Of a stretch of 64,000 nt of DNA, positions 7,136 through 50,008 are shown one piece after another (within the stretch, counting starts at the first letter, position 1; the number at the start of each line of letters is the position of its first letter). The stretch spans positions 2,609-66,608 of the forward strand of contig CAZXDT010000002.1 in NCBI GenBank assembly GCA_964639295.1. The letters are read 5' to 3'. This DNA comes from an uncultured Candidatus Saccharibacteria bacterium (GTDB lineage: Bacteria > Patescibacteriota > Saccharimonadia > Saccharimonadales > JALRHH01). The notes beneath the pieces were generated by a model. The model did not search any database. It saw only the letters and a list, made by a program, of their open reading frames with translations, and was not told where the DNA came from. A program made the position numbers and the translations under genes.

Positions 7136-8266
7136 CTATTCCCAACGGAAGACACGGAAGGCTATGGCGTAGATAACGATCATCCAAACAGCCATAAAAC
7201 CAAGCTGTGCACCAATATCAATCAGATGCTTGCCCTCGGTAGTGAGCAAACGTATGCCATCAATCACAGGCGTCAGTGGCAAGAAGGCAGATACATGCTG
7301 CAGCCACTCTGGCATCAAAAAGCGTGGGAAGAAGGTTCCAGACAAGAACATCATTGGGAAGACAATTAGGTTAGCCAGTGGTGCAGCCTGTCGTTCATTG
7401 CTCGCCCAACCACCAATTGAAAGTCCAATGCCTAAGATCATGAAGATACCCAGCACTATGAAGGCAATTATCTCTAAATAATTCCCTGTCACATGAAGGT
7501 CAAAAGCGGCTATGGCTACCAAAAACATTATCGCCAATGAGAACACACCGATAATTGCCTGCGCCAACATGGTAGACAAGAAATACTGCCAAACCCGGAT
7601 TGGCGTAGTGTGTAAACGACGCAAAATACCTTGTTTTTTGAGTTCCGGGAAGACGTTGATTGGGCCAAAAATACCCAAACCAATAATCGAGAAGCCTAAA
7701 AGCCCAGAGAATGTGTAGTCAAAGTTGCTGAGGCTATTCTCGTTCAGAGATTTGCCCTGAACAGTTAATGGTACTTCGGTACTGACGTACTTACTGTTGA
7801 TGCCCTTGAACGTACCATCGAGCACAGTAGTCAGGGTCTGGCCGGCAGATTCGTTGTTCTTGGTATAGAAAACTTCTGCAGCACCAGTAGGCTTGCTATC
7901 CTTTACGTCACCAAAGCCGGCTGGCAATACAATCGCACCGTCTAGTTGGTTGCGGCCTAATTTTTCCTTGGCTTGTTCAAAGGTAGTTACATCTTTGGCT
8001 ACTTTGAATGTCTTGCTGTCTTTGAACTGGGTTGTAAGTTCACCCGCAAACTGGCTTTGAGACTGGTTGATAACGGCAACGTTGAATGATAGGTCGTTAC
8101 TGCCTTTGTTGAAGTTACCAAAGACAAATAGGAAGATTAGGGGGAATAACACACCAAAAAAGATAGCTAAGCGATCACGGAAAAAGCGCCGAGTGGTAAG
8201 CTTGACGAATACGCGGACAGTGTAGAGTTGCTGTTTGAGAGTAAGTGAAGATTTGCTCATGACCAT
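7136..8266 (-). CDS. ABC-2 type transporter permease with large extracytoplasmic loop
   Basis: An N-terminal TM helix is followed by a ~150-aa loop and then five C-terminal TM helices, a typical ABC2_membrane_3 architecture. Its partner ATPase gene lies upstream. Confidence 0.85.
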   Translation of the reverse strand: MVMSKSSLTLKQQLYTVRVFVKLTTRRFFRDRLAIFFGVLFPLIFLFVFGNFNKGSNDLSFNVAVINQSQSQFAGELTTQFKDSKTFKVAKDVTTFEQAKEKLGRNQLDGAIVLPAGFGDVKDSKPTGAAEVFYTKNNESAGQTLTTVLDGTFKGINSKYVSTEVPLTVQGKSLNENSLSNFDYTFSGLLGFSIIGLGIFGPINVFPELKKQGILRRLHTTPIRVWQYFLSTMLAQAIIGVFSLAIMFLVAIAAFDLHVTGNYLEIIAFIVLGIFMILGIGLSIGGWASNERQAAPLANLIVFPMMFLSGTFFPRFLMPEWLQHVSAFLPLTPVIDGIRLLTTEGKHLIDIGAQLGFMAVWMIVIYAIAFRVFRWE

Positions 8267-8294
8267 GACCTTTCAGATTTTAGTGCAGATTGTT

Positions 8295-8356
8295 CAAGAA
8301 TTGAGCATCGAAGCGCAGCGTACTTAGGTACGTGAGCATCGAAGCACAAATTATTG
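8295..8356 (+). repeat. Module-1-only diverged copy (C) of the structured element
   Basis: The outer stem is caagaatt / aattattg and the apical hairpin is gcgtac-ttag-gtacgt. The 5' arm matches copy B at 16 of 23 positions. An internal direct repeat gagcatcgaagc occurs twice. The copy lies between the ABC ATPase and permease genes. Confidence 0.6.
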
Positions 8357-8385
8357 GGCGATATGTGCAAAATGTGAGATGTCAT

Positions 8386-9144
8386 TTAGTCCTTTAGTGC
8401 CTTTCCGGTGAGGTCAATAAAGACATCCTCCAGATTTGCTTGTTCAACATGTTGCTCTTTCTTGAACCCTCGGGCTAGAAGGTCCTTTATGAGCTTCTTG
8501 GGGGTCTCTAGCGCGACGATCTTGCCACGATCCATCACAGCAATACGGTCGCAGAGCATCTCGGCCTCATCCATGTAGTGTGTGGTTAGAATGACTGTAA
8601 CCCCCTTCTTCTGGATGTCACGAATGAGATCCCAGAGGTTACGACGAGCCTGAGGATCAAGACCAGTAGTTGGCTCATCCAGGAAGAAAACCTTAGGGTT
8701 GTGGACTAATGCCGTTGCGATGCTTAAACGCTGACGCTGGCCCCCAGAGAGGTTTTCTGGGTAGGCGTCTGCTTTCTCGCCTAGATTAACGTCGTCCAGG
8801 AATGCTTTCGGATTTACTCGTTCACCGTAGGTTGCAGAGAACATTTCGATGATTTCTGTCAGTTTTTGCTTATCCTGAAAGGCTGGTGACTGCGGCTGGA
8901 CACCAATGATACGACGAATCGCCCATGGGTCTTCGTGGACATTAATACCATCAATTATTGCGGTACCACCGTCGATTGGTCGCATACCCTCGATCATTTC
9001 AAGTGTAGTCGTCTTGCCTGCGCCATTAGGGCCCAGAATTCCAAATACCTCACCTTTTTTGACCTCGAATGATATACCATCAACAACATTGCGGTCGCCA
9101 TATGTTTTTACTAAATTGTGTACTTTGAGAATTGTTTCTGCCAT
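8386..9144 (-). CDS. ABC transporter ATP-binding protein
   Basis: Walker A GPNGAGKTT, signature LSGGQRQRL and Walker B FFLDEP are present. Confidence 0.92.
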   Translation of the reverse strand: MAETILKVHNLVKTYGDRNVVDGISFEVKKGEVFGILGPNGAGKTTTLEMIEGMRPIDGGTAIIDGINVHEDPWAIRRIIGVQPQSPAFQDKQKLTEIIEMFSATYGERVNPKAFLDDVNLGEKADAYPENLSGGQRQRLSIATALVHNPKVFFLDEPTTGLDPQARRNLWDLIRDIQKKGVTVILTTHYMDEAEMLCDRIAVMDRGKIVALETPKKLIKDLLARGFKKEQHVEQANLEDVFIDLTGKALKD

Positions 9145-9871: not shown

Positions 9872-10069
9872 CTAGCCGCGCTTAACAGTCAAGAAACCGT
9901 TACGTGGGTTTTCGTTTACAACGAAGCCTGCAGGAAGGTCAGTTGCCTCTGGGCGGTCGTCCTTGCTGAAGTAGTAAATCCTCTGCTCTTTGCCACCGCG
10001 CAATACGACGAGCTTTGAGTTAAGGTGATATGTTACGCCTTTTGAGTTCTGGTGTGTGTATCCAGCCAT
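9872..10069 (-). CDS. Small hypothetical protein (65 aa)
   Basis: GAGGGAG lies 6 nt upstream of ATG 10069 (MAGYTHQNSKGVTYHLNSK...). A stem-loop follows at 9820-9845. Confidence 0.6.
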   Translation of the reverse strand: MAGYTHQNSKGVTYHLNSKLVVLRGGKEQRIYYFSKDDRPEATDLPAGFVVNENPRNGFLTVKRG

Positions 10070-11038: not shown

Positions 11039-11063
11039 CGTTTAGTAAAGATCGCTTTTATGC

Positions 11064-11120
11064 ACCACACCAGACAGTGGGTTGCGAGCTCCGCTCGTAA
11101 GTAGGATGGTTGGTGTGGTG
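11064..11120 (+). repeat. Module-2-only copy (D) of the structured element
   Basis: A perfect 10-bp outer stem (caccacacca / tggtgtggtg) encloses gggttgcgagctccgctcgtaag, which is homologous to module 2 of copies A and B. Confidence 0.7.
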
Positions 11121-11127
11121 TGCCTGT

Positions 11128-16201: not shown

Positions 16202-16783
16202 TTATCCTGGAATAATCTCGCCTTTTTCGGTCACTGTAACCGCGCCTTGCCTCAAAACCTCGACTGCATCGTCTACTACCCGAATAACAGTTGAAGGCTT
16301 ATGGCCAGATAAATCACCTCCGTCAACATAAAAATCTACCTCACTACCAAAATATGCCTCTGCAGCTACAAGATTAACTGCCGGCTCCTGCCCTGTGTGA
16401 TTGGCGCTACTCGTTAAGAGCGGTCCTGTTTTTTCAAGTAGCTTCAGGAGATCAGGATGGTCCGGAATTCTACAAGCGAGTGATTGTTTGCCAAGATGGA
16501 GCTCCTCATGTTGTATACCAAGAGGTATGACGACACTGATTGGGTTTGGCCAGAATTGCTCCACAGCAGTCATATAGCGACGTGGGATTCCCAACTCAAC
16601 GAATTGGCCTATGTTAGCAGCGATTACCGTACCTGGCTTGTGGTGACGATGTTTAATATTGTACAAGCGAGCAACAGCTATTGGGTCACTTGCGCTAGCA
16701 ACCACGCCATATATTGTGTCTGTGGGTAACACACCGACTTTCCCATCATTTAGATATGATGCAATAGTATCGATGCTTAACAT
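16202..16783 (-). CDS. tsaC: L-threonylcarbamoyladenylate synthase (TsaC/YrdC family)
   Basis: GVLPTDTIYGVVA and SANHTGQEP motifs are present. I chose the start at MLSIDTIASYL (16783). Confidence 0.88.
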   Translation of the reverse strand: MLSIDTIASYLNDGKVGVLPTDTIYGVVASASDPIAVARLYNIKHRHHKPGTVIAANIGQFVELGIPRRYMTAVEQFWPNPISVVIPLGIQHEELHLGKQSLACRIPDHPDLLKLLEKTGPLLTSSANHTGQEPAVNLVAAEAYFGSEVDFYVDGGDLSGHKPSTVIRVVDDAVEVLRQGAVTVTEKGEIIPG

Positions 16784-16839
16784 GTTAAGTATTACTGACA
16801 CTTTTATTAGTTTCCTCTTATGGTTTATACTATAGCTAT

Positions 16840-23338: not shown

Positions 23339-23355
23339 ACTCCAGACCTGCTTTA

Positions 23356-23518
23356 GGCCGTTGTACTTGAGTGTCAGGTGCAATTTCTCTTCGAGAAACG
23401 GACCGAGCCGTACATGTGGTACGGTGAAGGGAGTATCGCAGAAGAAAATTGTGCCTGGCACCAAGAAGTCAGCGGGTCGTGAGCTCCGCTCATGAGCAGG
23501 CTGACTGGTACAGTGGCC
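23356..23518 (+). repeat. Bipartite structured element, copy A (module 1 at 23381-23451, module 2 at 23468-23505, 11-bp closing stem with two G-U pairs)
   Basis: ggccgttgtac (23356-23366) pairs with gtacagtggcc (23508-23518). The interior is homologous to copy B, with compensatory changes in three stems. Confidence 0.8.
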
Positions 23519-25422
23519 TAAAGGCCGCCGTAGCCGCCACCATAGCCGTTGAATGTTGTATTCGGTTTGTGATAATCCGTAACCTTCAAAGGAACCCCAG
23601 TAGCCTTCTGGTTCTTAGTATCTAGAAGCCCGGAGACTCCCATAATGTAGAGCTCACTTGAATTCTTTGAAACTAGCAGGTAGTTATCAGTGAACCAGCC
23701 GTAGACTGTGTAATCACTTAATTCTGCAACTGTTTTGCCGTTATCACCCTCGTTATCACCGACAAATAATGTATTTTTGCCGTCACGTGGCTCGGCCCAG
23801 AAAGTCTGCTTGTTAGATGGATCGTAGAGATATGTTGGGTAGAAGCCATAGAACTGACCGCTCAGATCTCCCTTGGTTTGCACTGCACCATTTTCTACTT
23901 CATAGAAATCAGAGCCACCAAGATTACCATAAACTCGGTAGTAGACTTCACGTGGTTTGTAGAGCTTGGATTCAATACTTGAGACTTTGTTAGCCTCAAA
24001 GCTCTTTAATGTTTTCTTGTCCTGGCCATTTACCTTCACTGTATAAATACCTGATTGTTTGCCAGCTAGGTAGCTGCCATCTGCTGTGTAAATACCTGCG
24101 TTCCAGGTCTTGGCGTAATTAACCGTATCCCCCACAAGAATCGGGCTACTAAAGTACTCTGATTTGTAGTCGGTCCCTGTGTACGAACCAACGCCACTGC
24201 CTTCGCCGGCGGTGTTATCGAGCACGTTCAACTTGTTAGTTTCGGCATCAAAGCTCTTAATACTGTACTTGTTTGGTTGCCAGAACTGTACCTTGTCACG
24301 CTGAACCAGATAGACAAATGTATGTCCACTCCAACCAGTCATCGTAAAGCTTGCATCGCCTTCATCCATGGTGGTTAGTTTGTCGCCTTTCGTCGTGTCG
24401 ATCAGATACAACGAAGCCGGCTTAGCTGCGCTGGCACGCTTGCTCTTAAGTGCCAAATACTTCCAGTCTTGGGATGCTAGCAAAACAGTGTCGCCATCAT
24501 CCTCACTACCCGTTGCAGCGAGCACCGTTTCAGCATTAGTGCCGTCAAGATTTGACTTCATGACGTTGATTTTCCCAGTACGCTTAGACAAGAAGTAAAC
24601 TTTGCCAGCAGGAGTAATAGACAGGTTGTTTTCTGCAACAACTGTTTCTGATTCTGTAACTTTAACCTTTGCAGTTTGTTTGTTAAATCCGTCCTTGGTA
24701 ATAGTCGCATCTTGGGTGTCTTGATCTGCTGGCAACACTATGACTGCTTCACCATTATCTCCAGTCTTTACTTCTGTCCCGGCTGCGCTAACTTGTGCAT
24801 CTTTAACGCCATTGCCATCGATCTTGTTGCTTACCCTCACGGTAACCTGACGGCCTGTGGCATCCAACTTGAGCGTAGCTTGACCACCACTCAGCGATAC
24901 AAGCACTGATGAACTGGTGTCCTTATAGTATTTTTTTGTAGCCTTGAGCTGGTATTTACCAACTGATACCTTATTGAAGGTAACGCTGCCATCCTGGCCA
25001 GTTTTGGCCGTTTTCCCACCGATCACCAAATCTACACTACTAATTGGCTTGTTAGTTTTGGCATCAATGACAGTGACCGAGAAGTTCTTTTTAATAACCA
25101 GACCGAGAACTGGGTATCTAGTGGCAGGAATTGCGCCAACGATCAGTAGGAGCGCAATGATAGTTGCTGGAATACTAACTTTCTTGTGCTTAATATAAGC
25201 CGTTTTCCATTTTGCTAGCTTTTGTTTGAATCCAGATTTTGCCTGTGGTTCTGGAACTTGTTCAGGTTCCACATCACTCTGAGGCTCTTCGTAACTTGTC
25301 TCTTCTTCTGGTTCTGGGGTTGTTACTTTATCGGGTTGTTCTACTTCTTCAACACTATTCGATGGTACGAGTGGCGCGGTTTTCGCCTCGTCATCATCAC
25401 GCTTCGGGTTCTCTAAATCCAT
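23518..25422 (-). CDS. Single-TM surface protein: acidic N-terminal tail, Ig-like domains, TolB-like beta-propeller (paralog of 19897-22176)
   Basis: AAGGGAG lies upstream of the ATG. The TM helix is IPATIIALLLIVGAIPA. PD40-like motifs include KVYFLSKRTGKINVMKSNLDGTNAE and EPRDGKNTLFVGD. The C-terminus is Gly/Tyr-rich (GYGGGYGGL). Confidence 0.8.
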   Translation of the reverse strand: MDLENPKRDDDEAKTAPLVPSNSVEEVEQPDKVTTPEPEEETSYEEPQSDVEPEQVPEPQAKSGFKQKLAKWKTAYIKHKKVSIPATIIALLLIVGAIPATRYPVLGLVIKKNFSVTVIDAKTNKPISSVDLVIGGKTAKTGQDGSVTFNKVSVGKYQLKATKKYYKDTSSSVLVSLSGGQATLKLDATGRQVTVRVSNKIDGNGVKDAQVSAAGTEVKTGDNGEAVIVLPADQDTQDATITKDGFNKQTAKVKVTESETVVAENNLSITPAGKVYFLSKRTGKINVMKSNLDGTNAETVLAATGSEDDGDTVLLASQDWKYLALKSKRASAAKPASLYLIDTTKGDKLTTMDEGDASFTMTGWSGHTFVYLVQRDKVQFWQPNKYSIKSFDAETNKLNVLDNTAGEGSGVGSYTGTDYKSEYFSSPILVGDTVNYAKTWNAGIYTADGSYLAGKQSGIYTVKVNGQDKKTLKSFEANKVSSIESKLYKPREVYYRVYGNLGGSDFYEVENGAVQTKGDLSGQFYGFYPTYLYDPSNKQTFWAEPRDGKNTLFVGDNEGDNGKTVAELSDYTVYGWFTDNYLLVSKNSSELYIMGVSGLLDTKNQKATGVPLKVTDYHKPNTTFNGYGGGYGGL

Positions 25423-26678: not shown

Positions 26679-28216
26679 GTAACTTCTACGTCTTCACCGA
26701 AGTGTTTTTCTAGGCGTTTTTTAATGCTGCCGGGGTGGCGACCAAACTCTTTGGTTAACATGTTAAGTGTTTTCTTATCTTCAAACATTTTCTTAAGCTT
26801 AGCGTCATCTTCGTCTTTCCAGGGCATATAGGCATTGGGGTATTCTTCACGCATTTTTGCTAGCTTTTCAGACCAGTTACTGGCGGGCTTTTCGTCGTCC
26901 TCTTCTGGTTCTGGTTCGTTTTTGCGTTTTTCTTCCGACGCCAGCCAAGTTGCAATGTGGTCGGAATGTTCTTGAAGCGCCTTTTCACTACGACTACGAA
27001 GCTCTGTGTCGATTTCGCGGGCAAGTGGGCTTGTCTTCAGCGCCATGCCATTGAGCCCATCAAGCGCAAGTTGGTTCATGCTCTTAACACGAGACAACGC
27101 AACATAACCCATGCCTTCTACGAATGCCCGACGAAGATCGATATGTGCACCATCCAAAGTCATTCCTTGACTCTTATGCACCGTAATAGCCCAGGCTAGG
27201 CGCAGTGGTAGTTGCTTGAGTGTAGCGCGTCGTTTGTCACCATCTATAAGCTCCCAGGTATCAGGCAGCATTGTAATGGTTTTACCGTTATTTAGTTTAA
27301 GGATTGGGTGTTCGTCCTCGTCAAAGCCAGTCACAATTCCGAGTGTGCCGTTGGCGTATCTGCCGTTCTGGCTGTTCTTGATACACATAACGTGGGCACC
27401 CTTTTTCAATTGCAAAACTTCTGGCGCTAGACACGAACGAGTCAGTTGCTCGATAAATTTCTTACCACCGGTTGTTTCCATTTCGTATTCGTATGTGTCA
27501 CCGTCTAGACGATCAAGTTCCGCATCGTTGATACGATCAACATCTGCATTGGTTGTCAGTAATCGGGTGCGGGCAACAAACGGGTCTAAAGTTACATCAA
27601 TACGATTTTGCAGTGTGGTTAATTGGTTGCGGGTTAAGACCCCAGCACGGATACCATTAAGTATCTGTGCATAGGCATCGTCATCACTCTGACGATACTG
27701 TTTTTCAAGATAACAAACGGTGAAGTTACCCGATTGCCATGTGTCGGATGACAGTACAAAACTTCCAGCGCGTGATTCATGTCGGTTAACGGGGGGCAAC
27801 TGGAAGAAATCACCAACCAGCACAACCTGAAGCCCGCCGAATGGCTTGTCATTGCCACGAACTGTACGTGCTACTTCCTCGACCATGTCCAGACGGTAGT
27901 CGTGCAACATGCTAATTTCATCAATGATTAAGATGTCCGCTTTGGCGATCAAACCCTGTCGTTGTTTGCCTACTTTTTGGAAAAAGCGATCTGGCAACGT
28001 ATCATGTACGCCGATCCCTGCCCAAGCGTGGATGGTTGTGCCGTTCAAATGAGTAGCAGCAAGCCCGGTAGTAGCAGTAACGGCAATGCTTTTGCGTCGC
28101 TTCTTGGCACGACGAATAAACTCATTAATGAGATAGGTTTTACCGGTTCCGGCCGCTCCGGTTAACAGAACAGACTGCCCTGATTCCAAAATTGCCAATG
28201 CTTCTTGCTGTGTCAT
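26672..28216 (-). CDS. ATP-dependent DNA helicase, Pif1/RecD-like (SF1B) with ~120-aa charged C-terminal extension
   Basis: Walker A LLTGAAGTGKTYLI, Walker B ILIIDEISML, and the motifs VLVGDFFQLPPV and ITVHKSQGMTLD are present. Confidence 0.88.
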   Translation of the reverse strand: MTQQEALAILESGQSVLLTGAAGTGKTYLINEFIRRAKKRRKSIAVTATTGLAATHLNGTTIHAWAGIGVHDTLPDRFFQKVGKQRQGLIAKADILIIDEISMLHDYRLDMVEEVARTVRGNDKPFGGLQVVLVGDFFQLPPVNRHESRAGSFVLSSDTWQSGNFTVCYLEKQYRQSDDDAYAQILNGIRAGVLTRNQLTTLQNRIDVTLDPFVARTRLLTTNADVDRINDAELDRLDGDTYEYEMETTGGKKFIEQLTRSCLAPEVLQLKKGAHVMCIKNSQNGRYANGTLGIVTGFDEDEHPILKLNNGKTITMLPDTWELIDGDKRRATLKQLPLRLAWAITVHKSQGMTLDGAHIDLRRAFVEGMGYVALSRVKSMNQLALDGLNGMALKTSPLAREIDTELRSRSEKALQEHSDHIATWLASEEKRKNEPEPEEDDEKPASNWSEKLAKMREEYPNAYMPWKDEDDAKLKKMFEDKKTLNMLTKEFGRHPGSIKKRLEKHFGEDVEVTK

Positions 28217-28895: not shown

Positions 28896-30655
28896 GCTTC
28901 TTCCACTGTTGTTTGGATACTGAGTTCAGTGAGCTGATTGTCTTCGACGAGGCTTGGGGAGGACATCATGACGTCTACACCGGAGCCATTTTTAGGGAAG
29001 GCGACGATTTCACGAATGTTTTCTTCGTTCATGAGCACCATAAACATACGGTCTAGGCCAAAGGCACAGCCGGCGTGTGGTGGAGCACCATATTTGAAAG
29101 CATTAATCATAGCGCCAAAGCGACTCTCTACGTATTCTTTGTCGTAATCGAGTGCACCAAAGACTGCATAAAGTACGTCTGGATTGTGGTTACGTACACC
29201 GCCAGAACAGATTTCATAGCCGTTCATAACCATGTCGTATTGATCAGCAAGAATACTTAACTTATCTTCAGTATTAAGTGCCTCAAGCCCGCCTTTTGGC
29301 ATGCTGAATGGGTTGTGACCAAAGTCTGGCTTGCCGGTCTTTTCGTCCTGTTCGTAGAATGGGAAGTCAACAACCCAGGCAAGGGCAATAAGGTCAGGGT
29401 CCTTGAGGTCAAAATGCGTAGCAAACTCGTTGCGCAGGCGTCCAAGGACTTTGTTCACGGTCGTCTTTTTATCTGCACCAAAGAACACAGTATCGCCGTC
29501 TTCTGCACCAGTTTTAGTCTTGATAGCATCAAGTTCTTCGGCAGTCATAAACTTAGCAATTGGTGATTTAACCTCACCGTTCTCCCAGGAAATATATGCC
29601 AATCCGCCAGCACCCTCTTGTTTTGCGATCTCTGTAAAGGAATCAATTTGCGAACGGCTCAATGAGGTACCGTTTTTTACGCAGATAGCTTTCACTGCTC
29701 CGCCGGCTGCAATTGGGTTCTTAAACACGCCAAACTCGCTGCCTTTAAGTTCTTCCGATAGATCAACCAACTCCATACCAAATCGGAGATCGGGTTTGTC
29801 GGTGCCAAATCGGTCCATTGATTCTTGGTATGGGATACGTGGGATGTCTTCTGAAAGTAACTTTTTGCCCGCAAAGTCAGTCACCAGGTTCTTGATAAGT
29901 GGGTCCATCGTGCTGCGAACTTCTTCGCCGTCTTCTACGAATGCCATTTCGAGGTCCAGTTGGTAGAACTCGCCGTACAAACGGTCAGCGCGGGGATCTT
30001 CATCACGGAAACACGCTGCAATCTGGTAGTAACGCGGTACGCCACCAACCATCAACAGTTGCTTGAACTGCTGTGGTGCCTGAGGCAATGCGTAAAATTT
30101 ACCCGGGTGTACACGTGATGGAATCAAGAAGTCACGGGCTCCTTCAGGACTACTGTTGGCCAAAATTGGTGTTGCTACCTCTGTAAATTCAAGATTTTCC
30201 ATGTAGGCACGCATAACTTTGTAGTAGTCAGCGCGTTTTTTGAGCATAGTTTGCATCTTTTCACGACGCAGGTCCAAGAAGCGGTATTTAAGGCGCAACT
30301 CTTCACTCGATTGGTTCTCGCTGTGAATTTGAATTGGCAAAGTCTCTGCCCTGTTTAAAATACTTAACGTGTTAAGTATTACTTCAATTCCACCTGTTGG
30401 GATATTAGGGTTCTTTAACCCTTCGCCTCTTTCTACTACCGAACCTGTTGCTGATATCACAAACTCGTCACGCAACTGCTCTGCTATCACAAATGCCTCA
30501 GCATTATCTGGACGAATAGTAAGCTGGACAAGGCCTGTATGGTCACGAAGGTCAATAAAAATAAGCCCGCCGTGGTCACGACGTGACTGGACCCAGCCTT
30601 TAAGCTCGACCTTTTCACCAACTTTGTTGGCAGAATCAATAGCCAATGTTCTCAT
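28892..30655 (-). CDS. aspS: Aspartate--tRNA ligase
   Basis: The OB-fold N-terminus (FIDLRDHTGLVQL), class II motifs (ACFRDEDPRADR, GLDRMFMVL) and the 587-aa length fit AspRS. Confidence 0.95.
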   Translation of the reverse strand: MRTLAIDSANKVGEKVELKGWVQSRRDHGGLIFIDLRDHTGLVQLTIRPDNAEAFVIAEQLRDEFVISATGSVVERGEGLKNPNIPTGGIEVILNTLSILNRAETLPIQIHSENQSSEELRLKYRFLDLRREKMQTMLKKRADYYKVMRAYMENLEFTEVATPILANSSPEGARDFLIPSRVHPGKFYALPQAPQQFKQLLMVGGVPRYYQIAACFRDEDPRADRLYGEFYQLDLEMAFVEDGEEVRSTMDPLIKNLVTDFAGKKLLSEDIPRIPYQESMDRFGTDKPDLRFGMELVDLSEELKGSEFGVFKNPIAAGGAVKAICVKNGTSLSRSQIDSFTEIAKQEGAGGLAYISWENGEVKSPIAKFMTAEELDAIKTKTGAEDGDTVFFGADKKTTVNKVLGRLRNEFATHFDLKDPDLIALAWVVDFPFYEQDEKTGKPDFGHNPFSMPKGGLEALNTEDKLSILADQYDMVMNGYEICSGGVRNHNPDVLYAVFGALDYDKEYVESRFGAMINAFKYGAPPHAGCAFGLDRMFMVLMNEENIREIVAFPKNGSGVDVMMSSPSLVEDNQLTELSIQTTVEEA

Positions 30656-31837: not shown

Positions 31838-32482
31838 ATGAAATCACGTTTTAGTCTTATTTTAATCGCCTGTGCAGTATTGTTTTTCGGCATTTTATTC
31901 GTTACCAAAAAAGATGCTAAGTCACCATCAGGTGGCAGTAATTCTAGTCAACCAAGTAACCATGTCAGGGGTGAAGGTAAAAGTGGCGTAACACTCACTG
32001 AGTACGGGGACTTCCAATGCCCGGCTTGTGGCGCTTACTATCCGGTTGTTGAGCAAGTCTACGAGAAGTATCACGACCAGATCACCTTCCAATTCCGTAA
32101 CTTCCCACTTCGTCAGATTCACCAGCATGCCATGGTTGCCCACCGTGCAGCTGCTGCTGCAGACAAGCAAGGTAAATTCTGGGATATGTACAACATGCTC
32201 TACAAGAATCAAGATAGCTGGACTAACCAAAGTGACCCAACAACAATCTTCCGTGGTTTTGCGGAGAGCTTAGGGCTTAACATGACTCAGTATGATACTG
32301 ATTTCAAGAGCGAAGCAGTCAACGACATCATCAATGCAGATATTGCCGAGGGTCAGAAGCTCGGTATTAGCGGTACTCCAACATTTGTCATCGATGGCAA
32401 GAAGATCGAGAACCCCAAAGATGCAGATGCCTTCAATAAAATCATTGAGGACGCCATCAAGGCCAAAACCCAAAACAACTAA
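31838..32482 (+). CDS. DsbA-family thiol:disulfide oxidoreductase (membrane-anchored/secreted)
   Basis: The N-terminus is hydrophobic. The active site reads EYGDFQCPACGAY (CPAC). Confidence 0.88.
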   Translation: MKSRFSLILIACAVLFFGILFVTKKDAKSPSGGSNSSQPSNHVRGEGKSGVTLTEYGDFQCPACGAYYPVVEQVYEKYHDQITFQFRNFPLRQIHQHAMVAHRAAAAADKQGKFWDMYNMLYKNQDSWTNQSDPTTIFRGFAESLGLNMTQYDTDFKSEAVNDIINADIAEGQKLGISGTPTFVIDGKKIENPKDADAFNKIIEDAIKAKTQNN

Positions 32483-32492
32483 TAGTTAGCTA

Positions 32493-32662
32493 CTAATCGT
32501 TTCGCACTTAAGCTCCAGATTCAATTTCTCCTTGAGAAACGGACCGAGCCGTACCTAAGTACGGTGAAGGGAGTATCGGAGAGGAAAATTGGATATGGAG
32601 CCAAGAGGCCAGCGGGTCGCGAGCTCCGCTCGTGAGCAGGCTGGCTGGTGCGAAACGATTAG
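32493..32662 (+). repeat. Bipartite structured element, copy B (module 1 at 32522-32591, module 2 at 32608-32645, perfect 15-bp closing stem)
   Basis: ctaatcgtttcgcac (32493-32507) is the exact reverse complement of gtgcgaaacgattag (32648-32662). The interior aligns base-for-base with 23381-23510 at roughly 85% identity by eye. Confidence 0.8.
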
Positions 32663-32670
32663 AAAGTAAA

Positions 32671-32706
32671 AGGCCAGTCTGATGACTGGTCTTTCTTTTT
32701 GTTTTT
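32671..32706 (+). terminator. Rho-independent terminator directly after structured element copy B
   Basis: The hairpin aggccagtc-tgat-gactggtct is followed by ttctttttgttttt. Confidence 0.8.
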
Positions 32707-32971
32707 GACCCTTTAGGGCAGTTCTTAATAAGATAGGAACTGTTGCCAAGAAGGGCGGCGTACTCTAACTTCCACGCGGGTACCTCGTGAATTCATTACT
32801 TTAATTTTAACAGGCATACCCCTGTAACCTCCACATGACCACACGCCTCTCACAGGACATATGATCCACTCATTTTTTGTTGATAGTTGTTTTTGTGTTT
32901 CGTTTAGCCAATTTAAAAGCAGGCTACTCGAACTGATCCCATATTCTCATAAACATAAGGGGATTGTCAAA

Positions 32972-37428: not shown

Positions 37429-37629
37429 TGTAGAAACATACACACGCACTCTTGCTCGAGAGATTTTACAGCTGTATCGGACTTCTGGTTACCCAGTTTA
37501 CCGTTGCGGCACAGTACAGGATTTTCACCTGTTTCCAGCATTGTTTTGTTAACTGTTCGTAGTGTATCACGTGCACGGCACGCTAGCTGTAGTAGTATAC
37601 GCTACATTTAGTACGCTAGAGGTAGCGGA

Positions 37630-47447: not shown

Positions 47448-48008
47448 ATGAAAAAACAAAAAAAATCCACATACGATAGTAAAAAGATACTGGTAGTCAT
47501 TGTAGTCGCCACTCTAGTAGTCGCAATTGCATGGTTCTTTATTACAAGAAACTCCCAGCCCCCAAGTGGGCAGGCTACTAATGGCCAGAACCAACCCGGT
47601 ACAGAAAAGCTTGATATGTCACCTGCTACCGATAAAGACAAAAAAGATGCCGAGAGCACTAAAGATACAATTATTAAGAAGGATGAACAAACAGCGCAAC
47701 CACAAACCGGGAGTAAAACAGTTACACCGACAATTATTGATGCTGGACAGTATGATCAAAGTATTGAGGTAAGAGCTTTCATAGGTAGCGTGTACGAGGA
47801 TGGCGGAACATGTGTATTTACCTTTAAGTCCAGCAGTCAAACCATTACAAAGAGCAGCCCAGGGCTCAAAGATGCAACAACGACCAGATGTACTAATATC
47901 AGCGTCCCCAAAAGTGAGTTTTCTAATGGCTCTTGGTCCGTCGTAGTCTCATACTCATCTACAACCGCCAGTGGTAGCTCTACAGCAAAGGTATTTGAAG
48001 TTAAATGA
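47448..48008 (+). CDS. Membrane-anchored hypothetical protein
   Basis: A Lys-rich N-terminus is followed by the TM helix ILVVIVVATLVVAIAWFFI. It overlaps the next gene by 4 nt (ATGA). Confidence 0.65.
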   Translation: MKKQKKSTYDSKKILVVIVVATLVVAIAWFFITRNSQPPSGQATNGQNQPGTEKLDMSPATDKDKKDAESTKDTIIKKDEQTAQPQTGSKTVTPTIIDAGQYDQSIEVRAFIGSVYEDGGTCVFTFKSSSQTITKSSPGLKDATTTRCTNISVPKSEFSNGSWSVVVSYSSTTASGSSTAKVFEVK

Positions 48009-50008
48009 TCCTTACTAACAATGTCAAAAGGGTAACTCTCGGGACTATGATAATAGTCTCTTGTTTGGTATTCATCTCCTCTACTCTGGCATCAGCACTG
48101 TCGGGGGCAGATTTCCAAGCCGGCCGCATTACTGATGATGGAGTATTTTTTAATGCAGGGTCGTTAACAACTTCAGATATCCAGGCTTTCCTAAGTGCAA
48201 AAGTTCCGGTATGTGACACGAATGGGACACAGCCGTATGGTGGCACCACACGTGCTGCATATGGTACCAGTAAGGGGTATCCCCCTCCTTACATTTGCCT
48301 GAAGGATTATCGGCAAGATACCCCGGCAAAAGCAGCAGAGGTGGGCTTATGTAATGGAATAGTTGCAGGTAGCAATAAATCTGCGGCACAAATAATCTTT
48401 GAGGTCGCACAAAGCTGTAGTGTTAGCCCTAGAGCACTCATTGTATTACTCCAAAAAGAGCAAGCTTTGGTTACAGACGATTGGCCATGGAGCTCACAGT
48501 ATCGAAGCGCAACCGGATATGGTTGCCCCGACACAGCTGCTTGCGACAGTGCATATTATGGGTTTTTCAACCAGGTATACTCTGCCGCTAGGCAGTTCAA
48601 GAACTACGCAAGAGTTCCAAGCTCATTCAACTACATTGCTGGGCGAAACAACTACATACAGTACAACCCAAATGCCTCGTGTGGTGGCTCAACAGTATTC
48701 ATCCAGAATCAAGCTACTGCTGGTTTGTATAACTACACCCCTTACCAGCCTAATGCATCTGCTCTAAATAACCTCTACGGCACTGGAGACGGATGCGGGG
48801 CTTATGGTAACCGTAACTATTGGCGCCTTTACAACGACTGGTTCGGTTCAACATTTTCTCCCGAGTACGCTTGGGATGTAGTAAGTCAGCAATATACTAA
48901 TAATACCGCTGATATTGTGGCGGGTAGCACCACGCAAGTTACGTTAGTTGCTCGCAATACAGGCTTACAAACCTGGTATAGAGATGGCGCAAATGCAACA
49001 CACCTCGCTACATCAAATCCCAATGACAGAGCAAGCGGTTTCAACGATAGTAGTTGGTTCGGATACAACCGGCCAGCAATCTTGCAAGAGGCAAGCGTCG
49101 CACCTGGGCAGACAGGAACATTCACTTTTATCGCTAAAGCCCCGGCCTCACCAGGGCAATATAGAGAATACGTGAACCTGGTTGCCGAAGGTAGGGCATG
49201 GTTCGCCGGTCCAGCAGTTAACTTCTACTTCAATGTTCTGCCTCGAGTATTCAGCTGGCAAGTTGAATCACAATCGTACTCACCGTCAACGGCTTACCCA
49301 TTAGCTGGGAGTGAGTCGGTACTCACCTTAAAAGCAAAGAATACAGGCAATGTAACTTGGAAAAACTCTGGTCCAGGCGTGGTTAACCTAGGGACGATTA
49401 ACGAGACACTGAGCCAGTATTACCACCCTACATGGATTGGTAAGACAAGACCTGCAGCCCTACAGGAAGCAAGCGTCGCACCTGGGCAGACAGGAACATT
49501 CACCTTCCGTATTAACGTGCCCAAGAATCCGGGAGAATACCGGGAATACTTTAATCTAGTATCAGAAAATGTCGCTTGGATGCAAAATCCAAATATGAAT
49601 TTTTACCTTGGTGTTCAGGCTCGTAATTACAGTTGGAGAATAGTATCTCAGCAGTATTCCCCAAACACTGTCAACGTCAAAGCTGGTACAACGGCACAGA
49701 TCACTCTTATTGCACAAAATACCGGCAATGTTGCATGGAGCAATACGGGACCGTACCCCATACTACTTGGTACCTCAAACTTACAAGACCGTACAAGCAT
49801 ATTCCAAAATTCCAGCTGGATAGGCTATAACCGTCCGACTATATTGCAAGAGCCAAGTGTCGCCCCAGGTTCAAACGGAACATTCACATTTACCGTTAAG
49901 GCTCCTCAGGCAACTGGACAATACCGAGAATATTTTAATCTTGTAGCTGAAAACTTCACTTGGATGCCAAATCCAAACATGAACTTCTTCTTTAATGTAA
50001 CTCCCTAG
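48005..50008 (+). CDS. Secreted protein: Cys-containing N-terminal domain plus three tandem ~126-aa Ig-like (NBR1-like) repeats
   Basis: The signal-like N-terminus is MIIVSCLVFISSTLASA. Three repeats each end in SVAPGQTGTFTF...PGxYREYFNLV. The family call is from memory. Confidence 0.8.
   Translation: MILTNNVKRVTLGTMIIVSCLVFISSTLASALSGADFQAGRITDDGVFFNAGSLTTSDIQAFLSAKVPVCDTNGTQPYGGTTRAAYGTSKGYPPPYICLKDYRQDTPAKAAEVGLCNGIVAGSNKSAAQIIFEVAQSCSVSPRALIVLLQKEQALVTDDWPWSSQYRSATGYGCPDTAACDSAYYGFFNQVYSAARQFKNYARVPSSFNYIAGRNNYIQYNPNASCGGSTVFIQNQATAGLYNYTPYQPNASALNNLYGTGDGCGAYGNRNYWRLYNDWFGSTFSPEYAWDVVSQQYTNNTADIVAGSTTQVTLVARNTGLQTWYRDGANATHLATSNPNDRASGFNDSSWFGYNRPAILQEASVAPGQTGTFTFIAKAPASPGQYREYVNLVAEGRAWFAGPAVNFYFNVLPRVFSWQVESQSYSPSTAYPLAGSESVLTLKAKNTGNVTWKNSGPGVVNLGTINETLSQYYHPTWIGKTRPAALQEASVAPGQTGTFTFRINVPKNPGEYREYFNLVSENVAWMQNPNMNFYLGVQARNYSWRIVSQQYSPNTVNVKAGTTAQITLIAQNTGNVAWSNTGPYPILLGTSNLQDRTSIFQNSSWIGYNRPTILQEPSVAPGSNGTFTFTVKAPQATGQYREYFNLVAENFTWMPNPNMNFFFNVTP
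48866..50005 (+). repeat. Three tandem ~378-nt intragenic domain repeats
   Basis: The repeat units start near 48866, 49244 and 49622. Units 1 and 2 share an exact 35-nt block, gcaagcgtcgcacctgggcagacaggaacattcac (49091-49125 and 49469-49503). Confidence 0.85.

Follow-up and report, generated by a model that had tools for sequence, protein, structure and literature searches.

REP sequences and the REPINs that they form are mobilised by RAYT transposases (Bertels & Rainey 2011, PMC3116915; PMC3337134). A REPIN consists of two inverted REPs of 20-40 nt that fold into one hairpin, and it has a conserved tagged end, either GTAG or CGTC (PMC3733652). Like the element described in this study, REPINs are short, non-autonomous, mostly intergenic and multi-copy; they form a long hairpin in a single strand, the pairing of which is kept by compensatory changes, and their mobilisation is thought to occur in trans through an enzyme that is encoded once per genome. 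The present element, however, is a three-way junction of ~170 nt with a conserved interior, variable ends, and no tag. Rickettsia palindromic elements (RPE) are mentioned in PMC1779305. They were reportedly described by Ogata et al. in 2000, and are said to be 100-150 nt long. They are palindromic repeats of a reduced genome, found both between genes and as in-frame coding insertions that become protein, without an associated transposase or an obvious target duplication. The element likewise is a palindromic repeat with intergenic and in-frame coding insertions and no associated transposase seen, but the likeness is in behaviour only: sequences and hosts are unrelated, and RPE are not described with a three-way junction, an invariant hairpin, or a strict strand bias.

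The bacterial MITEs that fold as RNA, namely Correia/NEMIS, ERIC, BOX, and RUP (reviewed in PMC10969869), are of similar size, co-transcribed with adjacent genes and, in the case of BOX, modular, and they too have promoter-affecting insertions and copies placed between a stop codon and a terminator. Their terminal inverted repeats are conserved and, like their target-site duplications, come from a parent IS; the element has neither feature, and it is oriented according to the chromosome strand. Integron attC sites (PMC2727003, PMC5371416) are also imperfect palindromes with structure conserved more than sequence in the stems, and they are recognised as one active, folded strand; in sedentary chromosomal integrons this strand lies on the leading-strand template, which is the same bias as inferred here (PMC5371416). 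In contrast to the element, which is single, scattered among housekeeping genes, and conserved inside, they carry conserved outer R/L boxes and extrahelical bases and flank gene cassettes that are arrayed next to intI. The retron msr-msd, of ~150-200 nt, resembles the element in having a copy-specific outer stem (a1/a2) around two modules. It is, however, a single locus immediately followed by a reverse transcriptase, while the element is multi-copy and has no reverse transcriptase near the copies found.

Saccharibacteria and other CPR bacteria have tiny, gene-dense genomes of about 1 Mb. In the window, i.e. the whole stretch of 64,000 nt analysed from a Saccharibacteria genome, a DsbA-like thioredoxin-fold gene (31838-32482, + strand; Pfam Thioredoxin_4, 2e-30, and DSBA, 1e-20; orthologues found) ends in a TAA at 32480-32482, and the element begins 10 nt downstream. 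From 32493 to 32662 it folds as a three-way junction with a closing stem, P1, and two hairpins, P2 and P3. The two + strand arms of P1 (32493-32508 and 32647-32662) pair over 15-16 bp, with 15 Watson-Crick pairs and one T·G. The perfect 15-bp stem noticed in an earlier, sequence-only reading is exact, since CTAATCGTTTCGCAC (32493-32507) is the reverse complement of GTGCGAAACGATTAG (32648-32662), and the two modules described there read as stated. P2 ('module 1', a long hairpin at 32509-32606 on the + strand, delimited by folds, alignment, and covariation) holds the junction CTTRAG...CCAAGAG, the internal loop GACCGAG/AAGGGAG, and the apex hairpin CCGTAC-CTAA-GTACGG at 32549-32564. P3 ('module 2', 32607-32646, + strand) reads GGCCAGC-GGG-TCGCGAGC-TCC-GCTCGTGA-GCAG-GCTGGCT and is the best conserved part of the family. 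The + strand folds better than the - strand both as RNA (32485-32710: -110.1 kcal/mol, z = -9.15, with 0 of 200 shuffles as good, against -85.1 kcal/mol) and as DNA (32490-32665: -50.9, z = -11, against -38.7).

The same reading had assigned the element a terminator of its own. A hairpin with a T-run does follow on the + strand at 32669-32706, its hairpin appearing usable from the - strand too, but it lies outside the element and is the ancestral terminator of the DsbA gene, because relatives with an empty site (L008, L011) have the same terminator hairpin directly after the DsbA stop. No T-run was seen past P1 in the other copies read, and the sequence upstream of the window copy showed no + strand promoter. 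The window copy sits inside a transcription unit, in the order DsbA stop codon, copy, terminator, and its insertion ahead of the old terminator appears to be specific to this lineage. Because of this position, it is presumably co-transcribed as a passenger in the DsbA 3' UTR; any influence on mRNA stability would be secondary.

Overall, the window contains two full copies, one short copy made of P1 and P3, and one weak hairpin, all in the + orientation as had been noted. The second full-length copy (23351-23523, + strand) scores 176 bits in cmsearch over 23354-23522, next to 175 bits for 32495-32662, in agreement with the recurrence of both modules claimed at 23356-23518. Its P1 differs, its P2 and P3 show compensatory changes, and it lies between a convergent HhH-GPD gene and a 634-aa gene, with its 3' end overlapping the stop codon of the latter. 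The short copy (11058-11127, + strand; 31 bits, E = 1.7e-5), in which P2 is missing, is found past the terminator of a + gene, with the stop codon of a - gene 5 nt away, and the same short form is present in L016 at 9902-9971; P2 deletion seems to be the trimming that produces this form. It includes the recurrence of module 2 proposed at 11064-11120: the 27-mer of module 2 repeats at 11079 with 3 mismatches and at 23474 with 2, and the 21-mer of module 1 repeats exactly at 23393, with 0 expected by chance for each. The further copy of module 1 that had been placed at 8295-8356 corresponds only to a weak match, at 8266-8418 (+ strand; 33 bits, E = 5.6e-6, without P3). This is a weakly related long hairpin with the apex GCGTAC-TTAG-GTACG, which occupies the spacer of two - strand ABC-transporter genes and may be a relic or may belong to a related family of single-hairpin palindromes; a comparable single hairpin of 169 nt is found in L011 (2477-2645).

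A covariance model was built, as the earlier reading had proposed, and searched against 183 kb of non-redundant window and locus DNA from 11 sources. It returned, in one orientation, 15 strong matches (E <= 1e-12), which include orthologous sites and two copies truncated by contig ends, together with 2 short copies. The named source records are Candidatus Saccharibacteria MAGs in every case; a genome scan for the element gave 4 contigs, every one a Saccharibacteria MAG, and a metagenome scan gave one partial copy. In the DNA sampled, the copy density is ~ one per 10-20 kb, and L005 has 3 copies in 8 kb. Each copy is a self-contained unit from one P1 strand to the other, with a length of ~165-175 nt (~70 nt in the short form). 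The copies are 60-85% identical to one another and look old; no near-identical copies at new sites, a sign of recent transposition, were seen among the copies sampled.

The conserved core consists of the junction CTTGAG / CCAAGAAG / TGG, the P2 apex GAGCCGTAC...GTACGG, and P3 with the consensus GGG-U-N6-GC-UCC-GC-N6'-A-GCAGG, while the outer half of P1 (outer 5-7 bp) is copy-specific and its inner part, NTYCRCRC, is semi-conserved. The 27-mer core of P3 is identical in the window copy (w1) and in the copies L004, L005a, L006, and L016a, the hosts of which have a DsbA only about 65-70% identical to that of the window. Such identity of the P3 core between genomes that have otherwise diverged widely speaks for strong functional constraint, which could be host-side, and counts against a mobile element. 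A search for additional solitary P3 hairpins found 15, all of them parts of known copies.

In the alignment of copies, pairing is kept in 95.7% of cells, compared with 33-42% when the partners are slid. In 45 of 62 pairs both partners have changed in a compensatory way, and none of 500 shuffles matched these values. All 12 model P1 pairs covary among copies, and P1 has undergone 2 double and 2 wobble-compatible changes between the orthologues L016a and L004. Among copies there are 59 G·U pairs and 9 A·C pairs, and therefore the fold is optimised on one strand. From these patterns, the structure appears to be under selection. By eye, no consistent covariation was seen in the alignment between the P3 loop (UCC/UCU) and the internal loop of P2 (GGGAG, GUGAG, AUGAG), and for none of 15 copies does either P1 strand match other parts of the sampled DNA better than chance would allow, as would be looked for in a guide.

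The element had been read in the first place as a 3'-UTR RNA, or an sRNA derived from the 3' UTR, of the DsbA-like gene. The spacer between DsbA and DUF1003 is empty in five related lineages (L008/9, L011-13, L014/15, L019/20, L022/23) and is likewise without a copy in L021, while in L016-18 and L004 it holds a copy past the terminator, unlike the window, where the copy precedes it. A conserved 3'-UTR element of DsbA was accordingly rejected, being absent in five related lineages and elsewhere in two, and a DsbA-dedicated RNA is not supported by the loci compared here. The copy in L016a/L004 occupies the loop of a pre-existing hairpin, so that the suggested targeting of hairpins holds for this insertion; it is not general among insertions.

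Other copies also go against a role in the 3' UTR, as they lie within the spacer of a promoter, in a 5' leader, at the start of a coding region, or antisense in operons. In L014 (full copy) and L016 (short copy), the element splits the DsbA promoter between the -35 hexamer with 16-17 nt and the -10 hexamer TACAAT, both hexamers being kept; L014 reads -35, 16 nt, P1...P1, TACAAT, and the empty site of the window reads -35, 16 nt, TACAAT. In both loci, a TGN extended -10 also arises from the element's own 3' end. L021a is a sense copy in a 5' leader and adjoins the start codon. Antisense copies lie between ftsI and mraY (L006), after atpC (L003), between two - strand genes (L009, L005c), and between co-oriented genes (L008b). 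The neighbours of copies are DsbA, DUF1003, HhH-GPD, glycosyltransferases, ftsI/mraY, and atpC. Stops are present in all three frames of all copies except the exapted L005b/L021b, in keeping with the claim that no reading frame is conserved.

No flanking direct repeat, target-site duplication, or conserved flank or target motif is consistent among copies. The insertion in L014 is exact and without duplication, and only L021a has a possible repeat, ATGAA. L008 and L009 are 97.8% identical over 6.8 kb, but both of the sites at which they differ are in or at the edge of an 88% block, so that the insertion boundaries are fuzzy. There is no transposase, reverse transcriptase, or integrase among the 40 window proteins scanned, no reverse transcriptase, integrase, or TnpA/TnpB adjoins the copies at the loci sampled, and neither a mobilising enzyme nor an autonomous parent element was found in the window or among the neighbours at the loci. 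Overall, it appears that copies were inserted as whole units at many unrelated chromosomal places and were sometimes lost or trimmed.

All of the roughly 11 independent sites of a syntenic ~60 kb region have the copy on the same strand, although the orientation rule rests on few independent regions, since most sites come from this single one. Flanking genes there are oriented (+,-) four times, (-,+) three times, (-,-) three times, and (+,+) once. The copy-bearing strand is C-rich at third codon positions and carries 36% of the coding DNA. In L006 the relation to the C-rich strand is the same, and L003, with an overall GC skew of ~zero, fits by gene orientation only. It appears, then, that the shared orientation follows the C-rich chromosome strand and not the neighbouring genes. 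This uniformity may be linked to replication. The better-folding strand would always be on the C-rich strand, which would correspond to the leading-strand template and rarely be single-stranded there; the assignment to leading and lagging strands comes only from short stretches, through their GC skew and gene-strand bias.

Known families were searched for the element. Rfam 15, with its riboswitches, 6S, SRP, tmRNA, RNase P, Intron_gpII, IS605-type/HEARO RNAs, and ribozymes, at the gathering threshold, has AdoCbl-II at 37465-37552 as its sole match in the whole window and none on the element; at E <= 10, Rfam gives just three chance-level matches of 11-16 bits in 32440-32760, and neither Intron_gpII nor IS605-type motifs match the element. 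ARAGORN found 0 tRNA or tmRNA genes in the window, so that the earlier statement that no known RNA family is recognised stands. BLASTN against plasmid and phage collections gave no match, and an exact-pattern scan of viral contigs gave 0. Several classes were considered and rejected individually. A MITE does not fit, as terminal inverted repeats are not conserved (the outermost 5-7 bp of P1 vary from copy to copy) and there is no target-site duplication (L014 is exact). For a REP or REPIN, the three-way junction with two different hairpins and the lack of a conserved tetranucleotide at the foot are at odds with the class, and no RAYT was seen in the ~300 kb of DNA sampled. The proposed REP/MITE-like nature fits the evidence better than a 3'-UTR RNA does, but not as regards terminal repeats and target duplications. 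A group II intron was rejected as well, the P2 apex resembling the base of domain V but without Rfam support, and the element being far too small. An integron attC would not have variable ends and solitary insertions by housekeeping genes, with no integrase seen, and a retron msr-msd would have a reverse transcriptase among its neighbours and would not be multi-copy.

It is nevertheless conceivable, though highly improbable, that the family is a renamed known class: a retron msr-msd, an attC site, an IS200/IS605-type end or omega RNA, or a group II intron fragment. The outer stem around two modules recalls a1/a2 of retrons, and the P2 apex GAGCCGUAC...GUACGGU resembles the base of group II intron domain V. 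Recognition of a folded strand and the leading-strand-template bias recall attC sites of sedentary integrons (PMC5371416). However, Rfam has no match, including Intron_gpII and IS605-type motifs even at E <= 10, and no reverse transcriptase, integrase, or TnpA/TnpB stands beside any copy found. The elements insert alone and not as gene cassettes, their interior is conserved, unlike the R/L boxes at attC ends, and there are many copies per genome, unlike retrons. The main rival, which we consider rather unlikely, is a family of functional structured RNA, in which the three-way junction is the active fold of a multi-copy trans-acting sRNA or of a cis-acting mRNA module. A cis module would affect mRNA stability, processing, or protein binding, and the genes of such a family would undergo rapid duplication and turnover, or else spread by way of RNA. 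Covariation is very strong in all three helices, G·U exceeds A·C by 59 to 9 on one strand, the nucleotides of the junction and internal loops are conserved, and P3 is nearly invariant. In the subtype of L003, L006, and L007, moreover, the internal-loop motif GACCGAG/AAGGGAG appears strand-swapped, which simple DNA inversion cannot produce; together with purine-rich conserved internal loops this is typical of functional RNA and argues against a mobile element. The window copy within a transcription unit, between stop codon and terminator, and the sense copy in the 5' leader of L021a are also in its favour. Against it, no copy has its own promoter or terminator and the flanks are unrelated, intact copies are found where + sense transcription is unexpected (the L014 promoter; antisense in L006, L009/L005c, and L008b), orthologous sites of close relatives are without the element, orientation tracks the chromosome strand and not the adjacent genes, and Rfam has no match.

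A DNA device of benefit to the host, whose cruciform or ssDNA fold acts on replication, supercoiling, or a promoter and is kept by selection without being selfish, is less probable still. Looping out of the element in L014 and L016 would restore a promoter spacer of 16-18 nt between the retained hexamers, and in L011 the DsbA promoter is likewise divided exactly, by a different palindrome; the strand bias is strict when set against GC skew, and structure is kept in non-transcribed positions. Most copies, however, are outside promoters, presence is sporadic and relatives evidently manage without the element, and the TGN extended -10 could alone keep the promoters of L014 and L016 working. To our knowledge, no DNA device of this kind uses a 170-nt three-way junction. 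On balance, the element is probably a copy of a non-autonomous, structure-dependent mobile palindromic repeat of Saccharibacteria. The repeat family is previously undescribed and is gained and lost between related genomes; the literature searched gave no account, for Saccharibacteria or CPR, of interspersed repeats or of family-specific structured non-coding elements. Such a repeat would be propagated, maintained, or both in the form of a folded single strand, most likely ssDNA or an extruded cruciform, with the invariant P3 and the junction as a putative recognition site for a trans-acting enzyme encoded elsewhere in the genome. After insertion, compensatory change keeps the pairing on one particular strand.

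More tentatively, the element may be the substrate and footprint of an undescribed structure-guided mobilisation system, or else a new class of multi-copy structured RNA in CPR; if so, it is in either case a kind of element not yet catalogued. The mobilisation system would recognise the three-way-junction core (P3 and the junction) in a folded single strand and insert a self-closing unit, with neither terminal repeats nor duplication of the target, the copy-specific outer stem possibly being made anew through fold-back synthesis. The conserved interior, copy-specific stem, one-strand optimisation, and strict orientation provide a handle for a new single-strand-specific recombinase or an RNA partner protein. 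With one copy per ~10-20 kb, it follows that these genomes tolerate selfish or semi-domesticated DNA. Short-read assemblies are broken by the element (the short-read contigs L001 and L002 end within P3), which also splits promoters, alters UTRs, and adds N-terminal extensions to proteins, and MAG annotation pipelines should not label its copies as sRNA genes or terminators.

Such an extension is seen in L005b and L021b, the sole coding insertion observed, where the element lies at the extreme N-terminus, within the opening codons of a glycosyltransferase gene. The P2 loop supplies an ATG that opens a conserved in-frame extension of 32-43 aa. The idea suggested by this site, that P1 is copied from the target, does not fit L014, L016a, and L021a. 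In L005b and L021b, the 3' strand encodes the ancestral ..SQLK.. residues.

The element lies behind the DsbA-like open reading frame (31838-32482, + strand, last base 32482; Thioredoxin_4/DSBA match). Its closing stem, P1 (32493-32507 with 32648-32662, +), is the perfect 15-bp helix read earlier from the sequence alone, with CTAATCGTTTCGCAC from 32493 fully complementary to GTGCGAAACGATTAG at 32648-32662. The two modules described inside it are present as hairpins in the predicted fold, a three-way junction of P1, P2 ('module 1', +), a long interrupted hairpin with the apex CCGTAC-CTAA-GTACGG at 32549-32564, and P3 ('module 2', 32607-32646, +). As + strand RNA, 32485-32710 folds at -110.1 kcal/mol (z = -9.15; 0/200 dinucleotide shuffles did as well) and its complement at -85.1 kcal/mol; with DNA parameters, 32490-32665 gives -50.9 (z = -11.0) versus -38.7 for the opposite strand. 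Both modules recur, as had been noted, in a second full copy at 23354-23522, and module 2 in a copy with P1 and P3 only at 11058-11127; zero chance matches are expected for these recurring sequences. The proposed module 1 copy at 8295-8356 does show similarity, but a weak one (33 bits for 8266-8418). All window copies are + oriented and share no conserved reading frame, in agreement with the sequence-only reading.

All related loci keep the arrangement CBS(-), DsbA(+), DUF1003(-), Na-H exchanger(+). In L008/9, L011-13, L014/15, L019/20 and L022/23 the terminator directly follows the DsbA stop codon and the DsbA-DUF1003 spacer is without the element. In the window, the element stands between the stop and the terminator shared with relatives, while in L016-18 and L004 it is downstream of the terminator, within the loop of a pre-existing hairpin and exactly behind the stop of a conserved opposite-strand 30-codon ORF. 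The spacer has received at least two independent insertions. The terminator downstream of the window element, a hairpin and T-run at 32669-32706, is ancestral; the sequence-only reading had recognized it correctly but was mistaken in calling it the element's own, since it directly follows the DsbA stop in relatives without the element. A new structured RNA belonging to the 3' UTR of the DsbA gene is not supported, given the absence from the spacers of these relatives and the differing positions. The suggestion of a REP/MITE-like element that targets hairpins fits better: the L016-18/L004 insertion is in a hairpin loop, although such targeting is not general. The copies have no conserved flanks or consistent direct repeat, nor a promoter or T-run of their own. 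The 30-codon ORF itself (MPVKIKVMNSRGTRVEVRVRRPSWQQFLSY; window 32725-32817, -) has the ribosome-binding site GGAGG, a leader to ~32935 that is long and conserved, and a promoter-like TTGACA-16-GAGAAT at 32970-32943 (-). Every orthologous spacer contains it, the differences being synonymous and conservative; Pfam and NCBIfam give no match, and it is shorter than usual ORF length cut-offs.

A degenerate P3 pattern was scanned by exact matching over 185,579 species genomes, a metagenome collection and viral contigs. It matched four contigs from three of the genomes, every one an 'uncultured Candidatus Saccharibacteria' MAG, and, in the metagenome collection, a single partial copy; this exact degenerate-pattern scan found none in the viral contigs. 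The window is a chromosome segment of Saccharibacteria (TM7, candidate phyla radiation) with ordinary housekeeping genes, since loci L004 and L005 are syntenic with it at 50-75% translated identity. Among the 40 window proteins scanned there is no transposase, integrase or reverse transcriptase. Syntenic loci obtained via DsbA homologues were searched with R1, a covariance model built from eight copies. Over 183 kb of non-redundant sequence it yielded 15 matches at E <= 1e-12, short forms and relics being additional. The density reaches three copies in 8 kb (L005), and no copy was found in L011-13, L019/20 and L022/23 within up to 20 kb searched per relative. Short-read contigs encoding the window's exact DsbA protein break off inside P3, as expected of a repeat.

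The DsbA promoter is itself an insertion site. In L014 (9803-9972, full form) and L016 (about 9901-9971, short form) the element is preceded by the -35 hexamer and 16-17 nt and followed by the -10 TACAAT. Comparison with the empty promoter of the window (TTGAAA-16 nt-TACAAT) shows that the inserted DNA therefore extends exactly from P1 strand to P1 strand, with no duplication and no loss. Both hexamers are kept, looping out the palindrome would give back a spacing of 16-18 nt, and the last bases of the inserted element form a TGN extended -10. A distinct 169-nt palindrome (L011 2477-2645; one long hairpin, closed by a 12-bp outer stem, with GGTCGTACCTGTAGGTACGAACC as its apex) has entered the same promoter within its 16-17 nt spacer; it also folds better on the + strand (-82 vs -72 kcal/mol), is not detected by R1, and may belong to a related family including window 8266-8418.

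Other copies occupy very different positions. L021a lies in a 5' leader, adjoining the start codon of a sugar-transferase gene, and L005a ~30 nt from that position, upstream of a -10; these are two separate events. L005b (L005 2766-2934, -) and L021b (L021 20074-20225, +) have inserted into a glycosyltransferase gene within its first codons; in the window (empty site 41537), L009 and L022 this gene overlaps its upstream neighbour. Both genomes have preserved the frame that starts at an ATG in the P2 loop (MSRI.NT..ERQTPAD..VRQE.Q.VASSAR.Q.DL..LK.AIVHDW). It adds a conserved 32-43 residues in frame to the N-terminus, and gene callers accordingly predict a glycosyltransferase 32 residues longer; the ancestral ..DLSQLKVAIVHDW motif is still encoded by the bases behind the element. 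Copies antisense to their neighbours are found between ftsI and mraY (L006), behind atpC (L003), upstream of bacA (L008b), and between two - strand genes beside a cobalamin riboswitch (L009, L005c). The short forms (window 11058-11127; L016 about 9901-9971), in which P2 is gone, are decay products, and that of L016 shares one site with the full form of L014.

Several of these regions show further features. In the window an AdoCbl-II riboswitch (37465-37552, -; 38.9 bits, gathering threshold 36.5) precedes a 490-aa protein without Pfam match, a region adjoined by an element copy in L009 and L005. Between L008 and L009, which encode an identical DsbA protein, identity is 97.8% over 6.8 kb and 88% to the right of L009 8794; the L009 copy is exactly at this switch, which suggests that lineages have recombined at the repeat or close to it. 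At window 23518-25422 (-) an extra 634-aa CarboxypepD_reg-domain paralogue, missing from the corresponding place in L008, L014, L016, L021 and L022, stands between an HhH-GPD gene and a 220-aa gene, and the second full copy is at this rearrangement junction.

The structure is strongly supported by evolution. In a 15-sequence alignment, standard pairs fill 95.7% of cells, versus 33-42% after shifting the partners by 1-3 columns. Both-sided changes occur in 45 of the 62 pairs (35 of 63 in a separate MAFFT/RNAalifold run), and 0/500 column shuffles attain the observed values; the alignment was fitted to the model and kinship among the sequences inflates these shuffle tests, while the slid-partner controls and the pair L016a/L004 are independent of both effects. 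L016a and L004, copies at the same site in two genomes, differ in P1 by two double compensatory and two wobble-compatible changes; therefore, pairing was kept up after insertion. All 12 modelled pairs of P1 covary. The 8-bp stem of P3 varies (UCGCGAGC/GCUCGUGA, UCGUGAGC/GCUCAUGA, UGGACGGC/GCCGUUCA, UUUCUGGC/GCCAGAAA) around fixed parts, namely the GGG...AGCAGG internal loop, the U-A closing pair and the GC-UCC-GC apex. Pairing is optimised on one strand (59 G·U vs 9 A·C).

Once the loci are turned to match the window, copies in the window, L004, L005, L008, L009, L014, L016 and L021 all have the same orientation. They amount to ~11 independent sites, all within a single syntenic region of ~60 kb, and the probability of such agreement is ~2^-10, the first site being given. 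The flanking genes are (+,-) at four sites, (-,+) at three, (-,-) at three and (+,+) at one, and the orientation is therefore independent of transcription. The better-folding strand is C-rich. Third-codon-position GC skew in gene orientation is -0.18 in + genes and -0.035 in - genes, therefore the + strand component is ~-0.075; the - strand carries 64% of coding DNA. In L006, another genome part, the element is opposite the dcw operon strand, which is G-rich; in L003 it is opposite the atp operon, where the skew is ~zero. By the usual rules of GC skew and gene strand, the better-folding strand would be the lagging-strand sequence, that is, the leading-strand template, because it is C-rich and opposite to the majority gene strand. 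IS200/IS605 elements have a bias opposite to that of the element. A precedent for the element's bias is provided by attC sites of sedentary chromosomal integrons: their recombinogenic bottom strands belong to the leading-strand template, which limits their folding and thereby their excision (PMC5371416).

Overall, the element is a multi-copy, self-contained unit, gained whole at new sites and lost or trimmed, bound to no gene or transcript type, with its single-strand fold under selection on one strand. It is probably a palindromic element that is mobile and non-autonomous and is handled in the form of a folded single strand. An enzyme encoded elsewhere would recognize the near-invariant P3 hairpin with its internal loop and the junction; the copy-specific outer P1 would drift through compensatory change, new synthesis at insertion being less likely; and copies turned the other way would be lost by excision, or would do harm by forming stable hairpins on the lagging-strand template. 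The window copy is presumably part of the DsbA transcript, and a change in 3'-end stability may be a side effect. A functional RNA family would account for the conserved purine-rich loops, the G·U bias in pairing and the GACCGAG/AAGGGAG internal loop on opposite P2 strands in the L003/L006/L007 subtype; however, it is unlikely given intact copies in a promoter spacer and antisense positions, copies without their own signals, and sporadic presence. The promoter insertions of L014, L016 and L011 could point to a DNA device of benefit to the host, such as a supercoiling-dependent cruciform re-joining split promoter hexamers, but this leaves most copies unexplained and seems improbable.

Rfam 15 gave no match at gathering threshold, nor even at E <= 10, and no tRNA or tmRNA was found, which bears out the earlier impression of an element unlike any known RNA family; it also has no similarity in plasmid and phage sequences. 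Membership of the retron, attC, IS605-type or group II families is very improbable, as the element lacks the defining features of each. Closest in behaviour to the mobile palindromic element proposed here are REPINs (PMC3116915) and the Rickettsia palindromic elements, the latter sharing a reduced genome, possible coding-sequence insertion and no known transposase. In contrast to both, the element forms a three-way junction, is conserved inside and variable at its ends, lacks a terminal tag and a target duplication, and obeys a strict strand rule. A full-text literature search turned up no account of repeats or RNAs of this kind from Saccharibacteria or CPR; the family is well supported and apparently undescribed so far, in a poorly known phylum.

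Two other repeats were seen in the window. A 24-mer at 16773-16796, 26751-26774 and 30360-30383 contains the palindrome TTAACATGTTAA / TTAACGTGTTAA and could be a regulator binding site. Three tandem diverged 152-nt repeats (49085-49998; 63-70% identity, period ~380 nt) are located within a 667-aa ORF (48005-50008), which looks like a repeat-domain protein.
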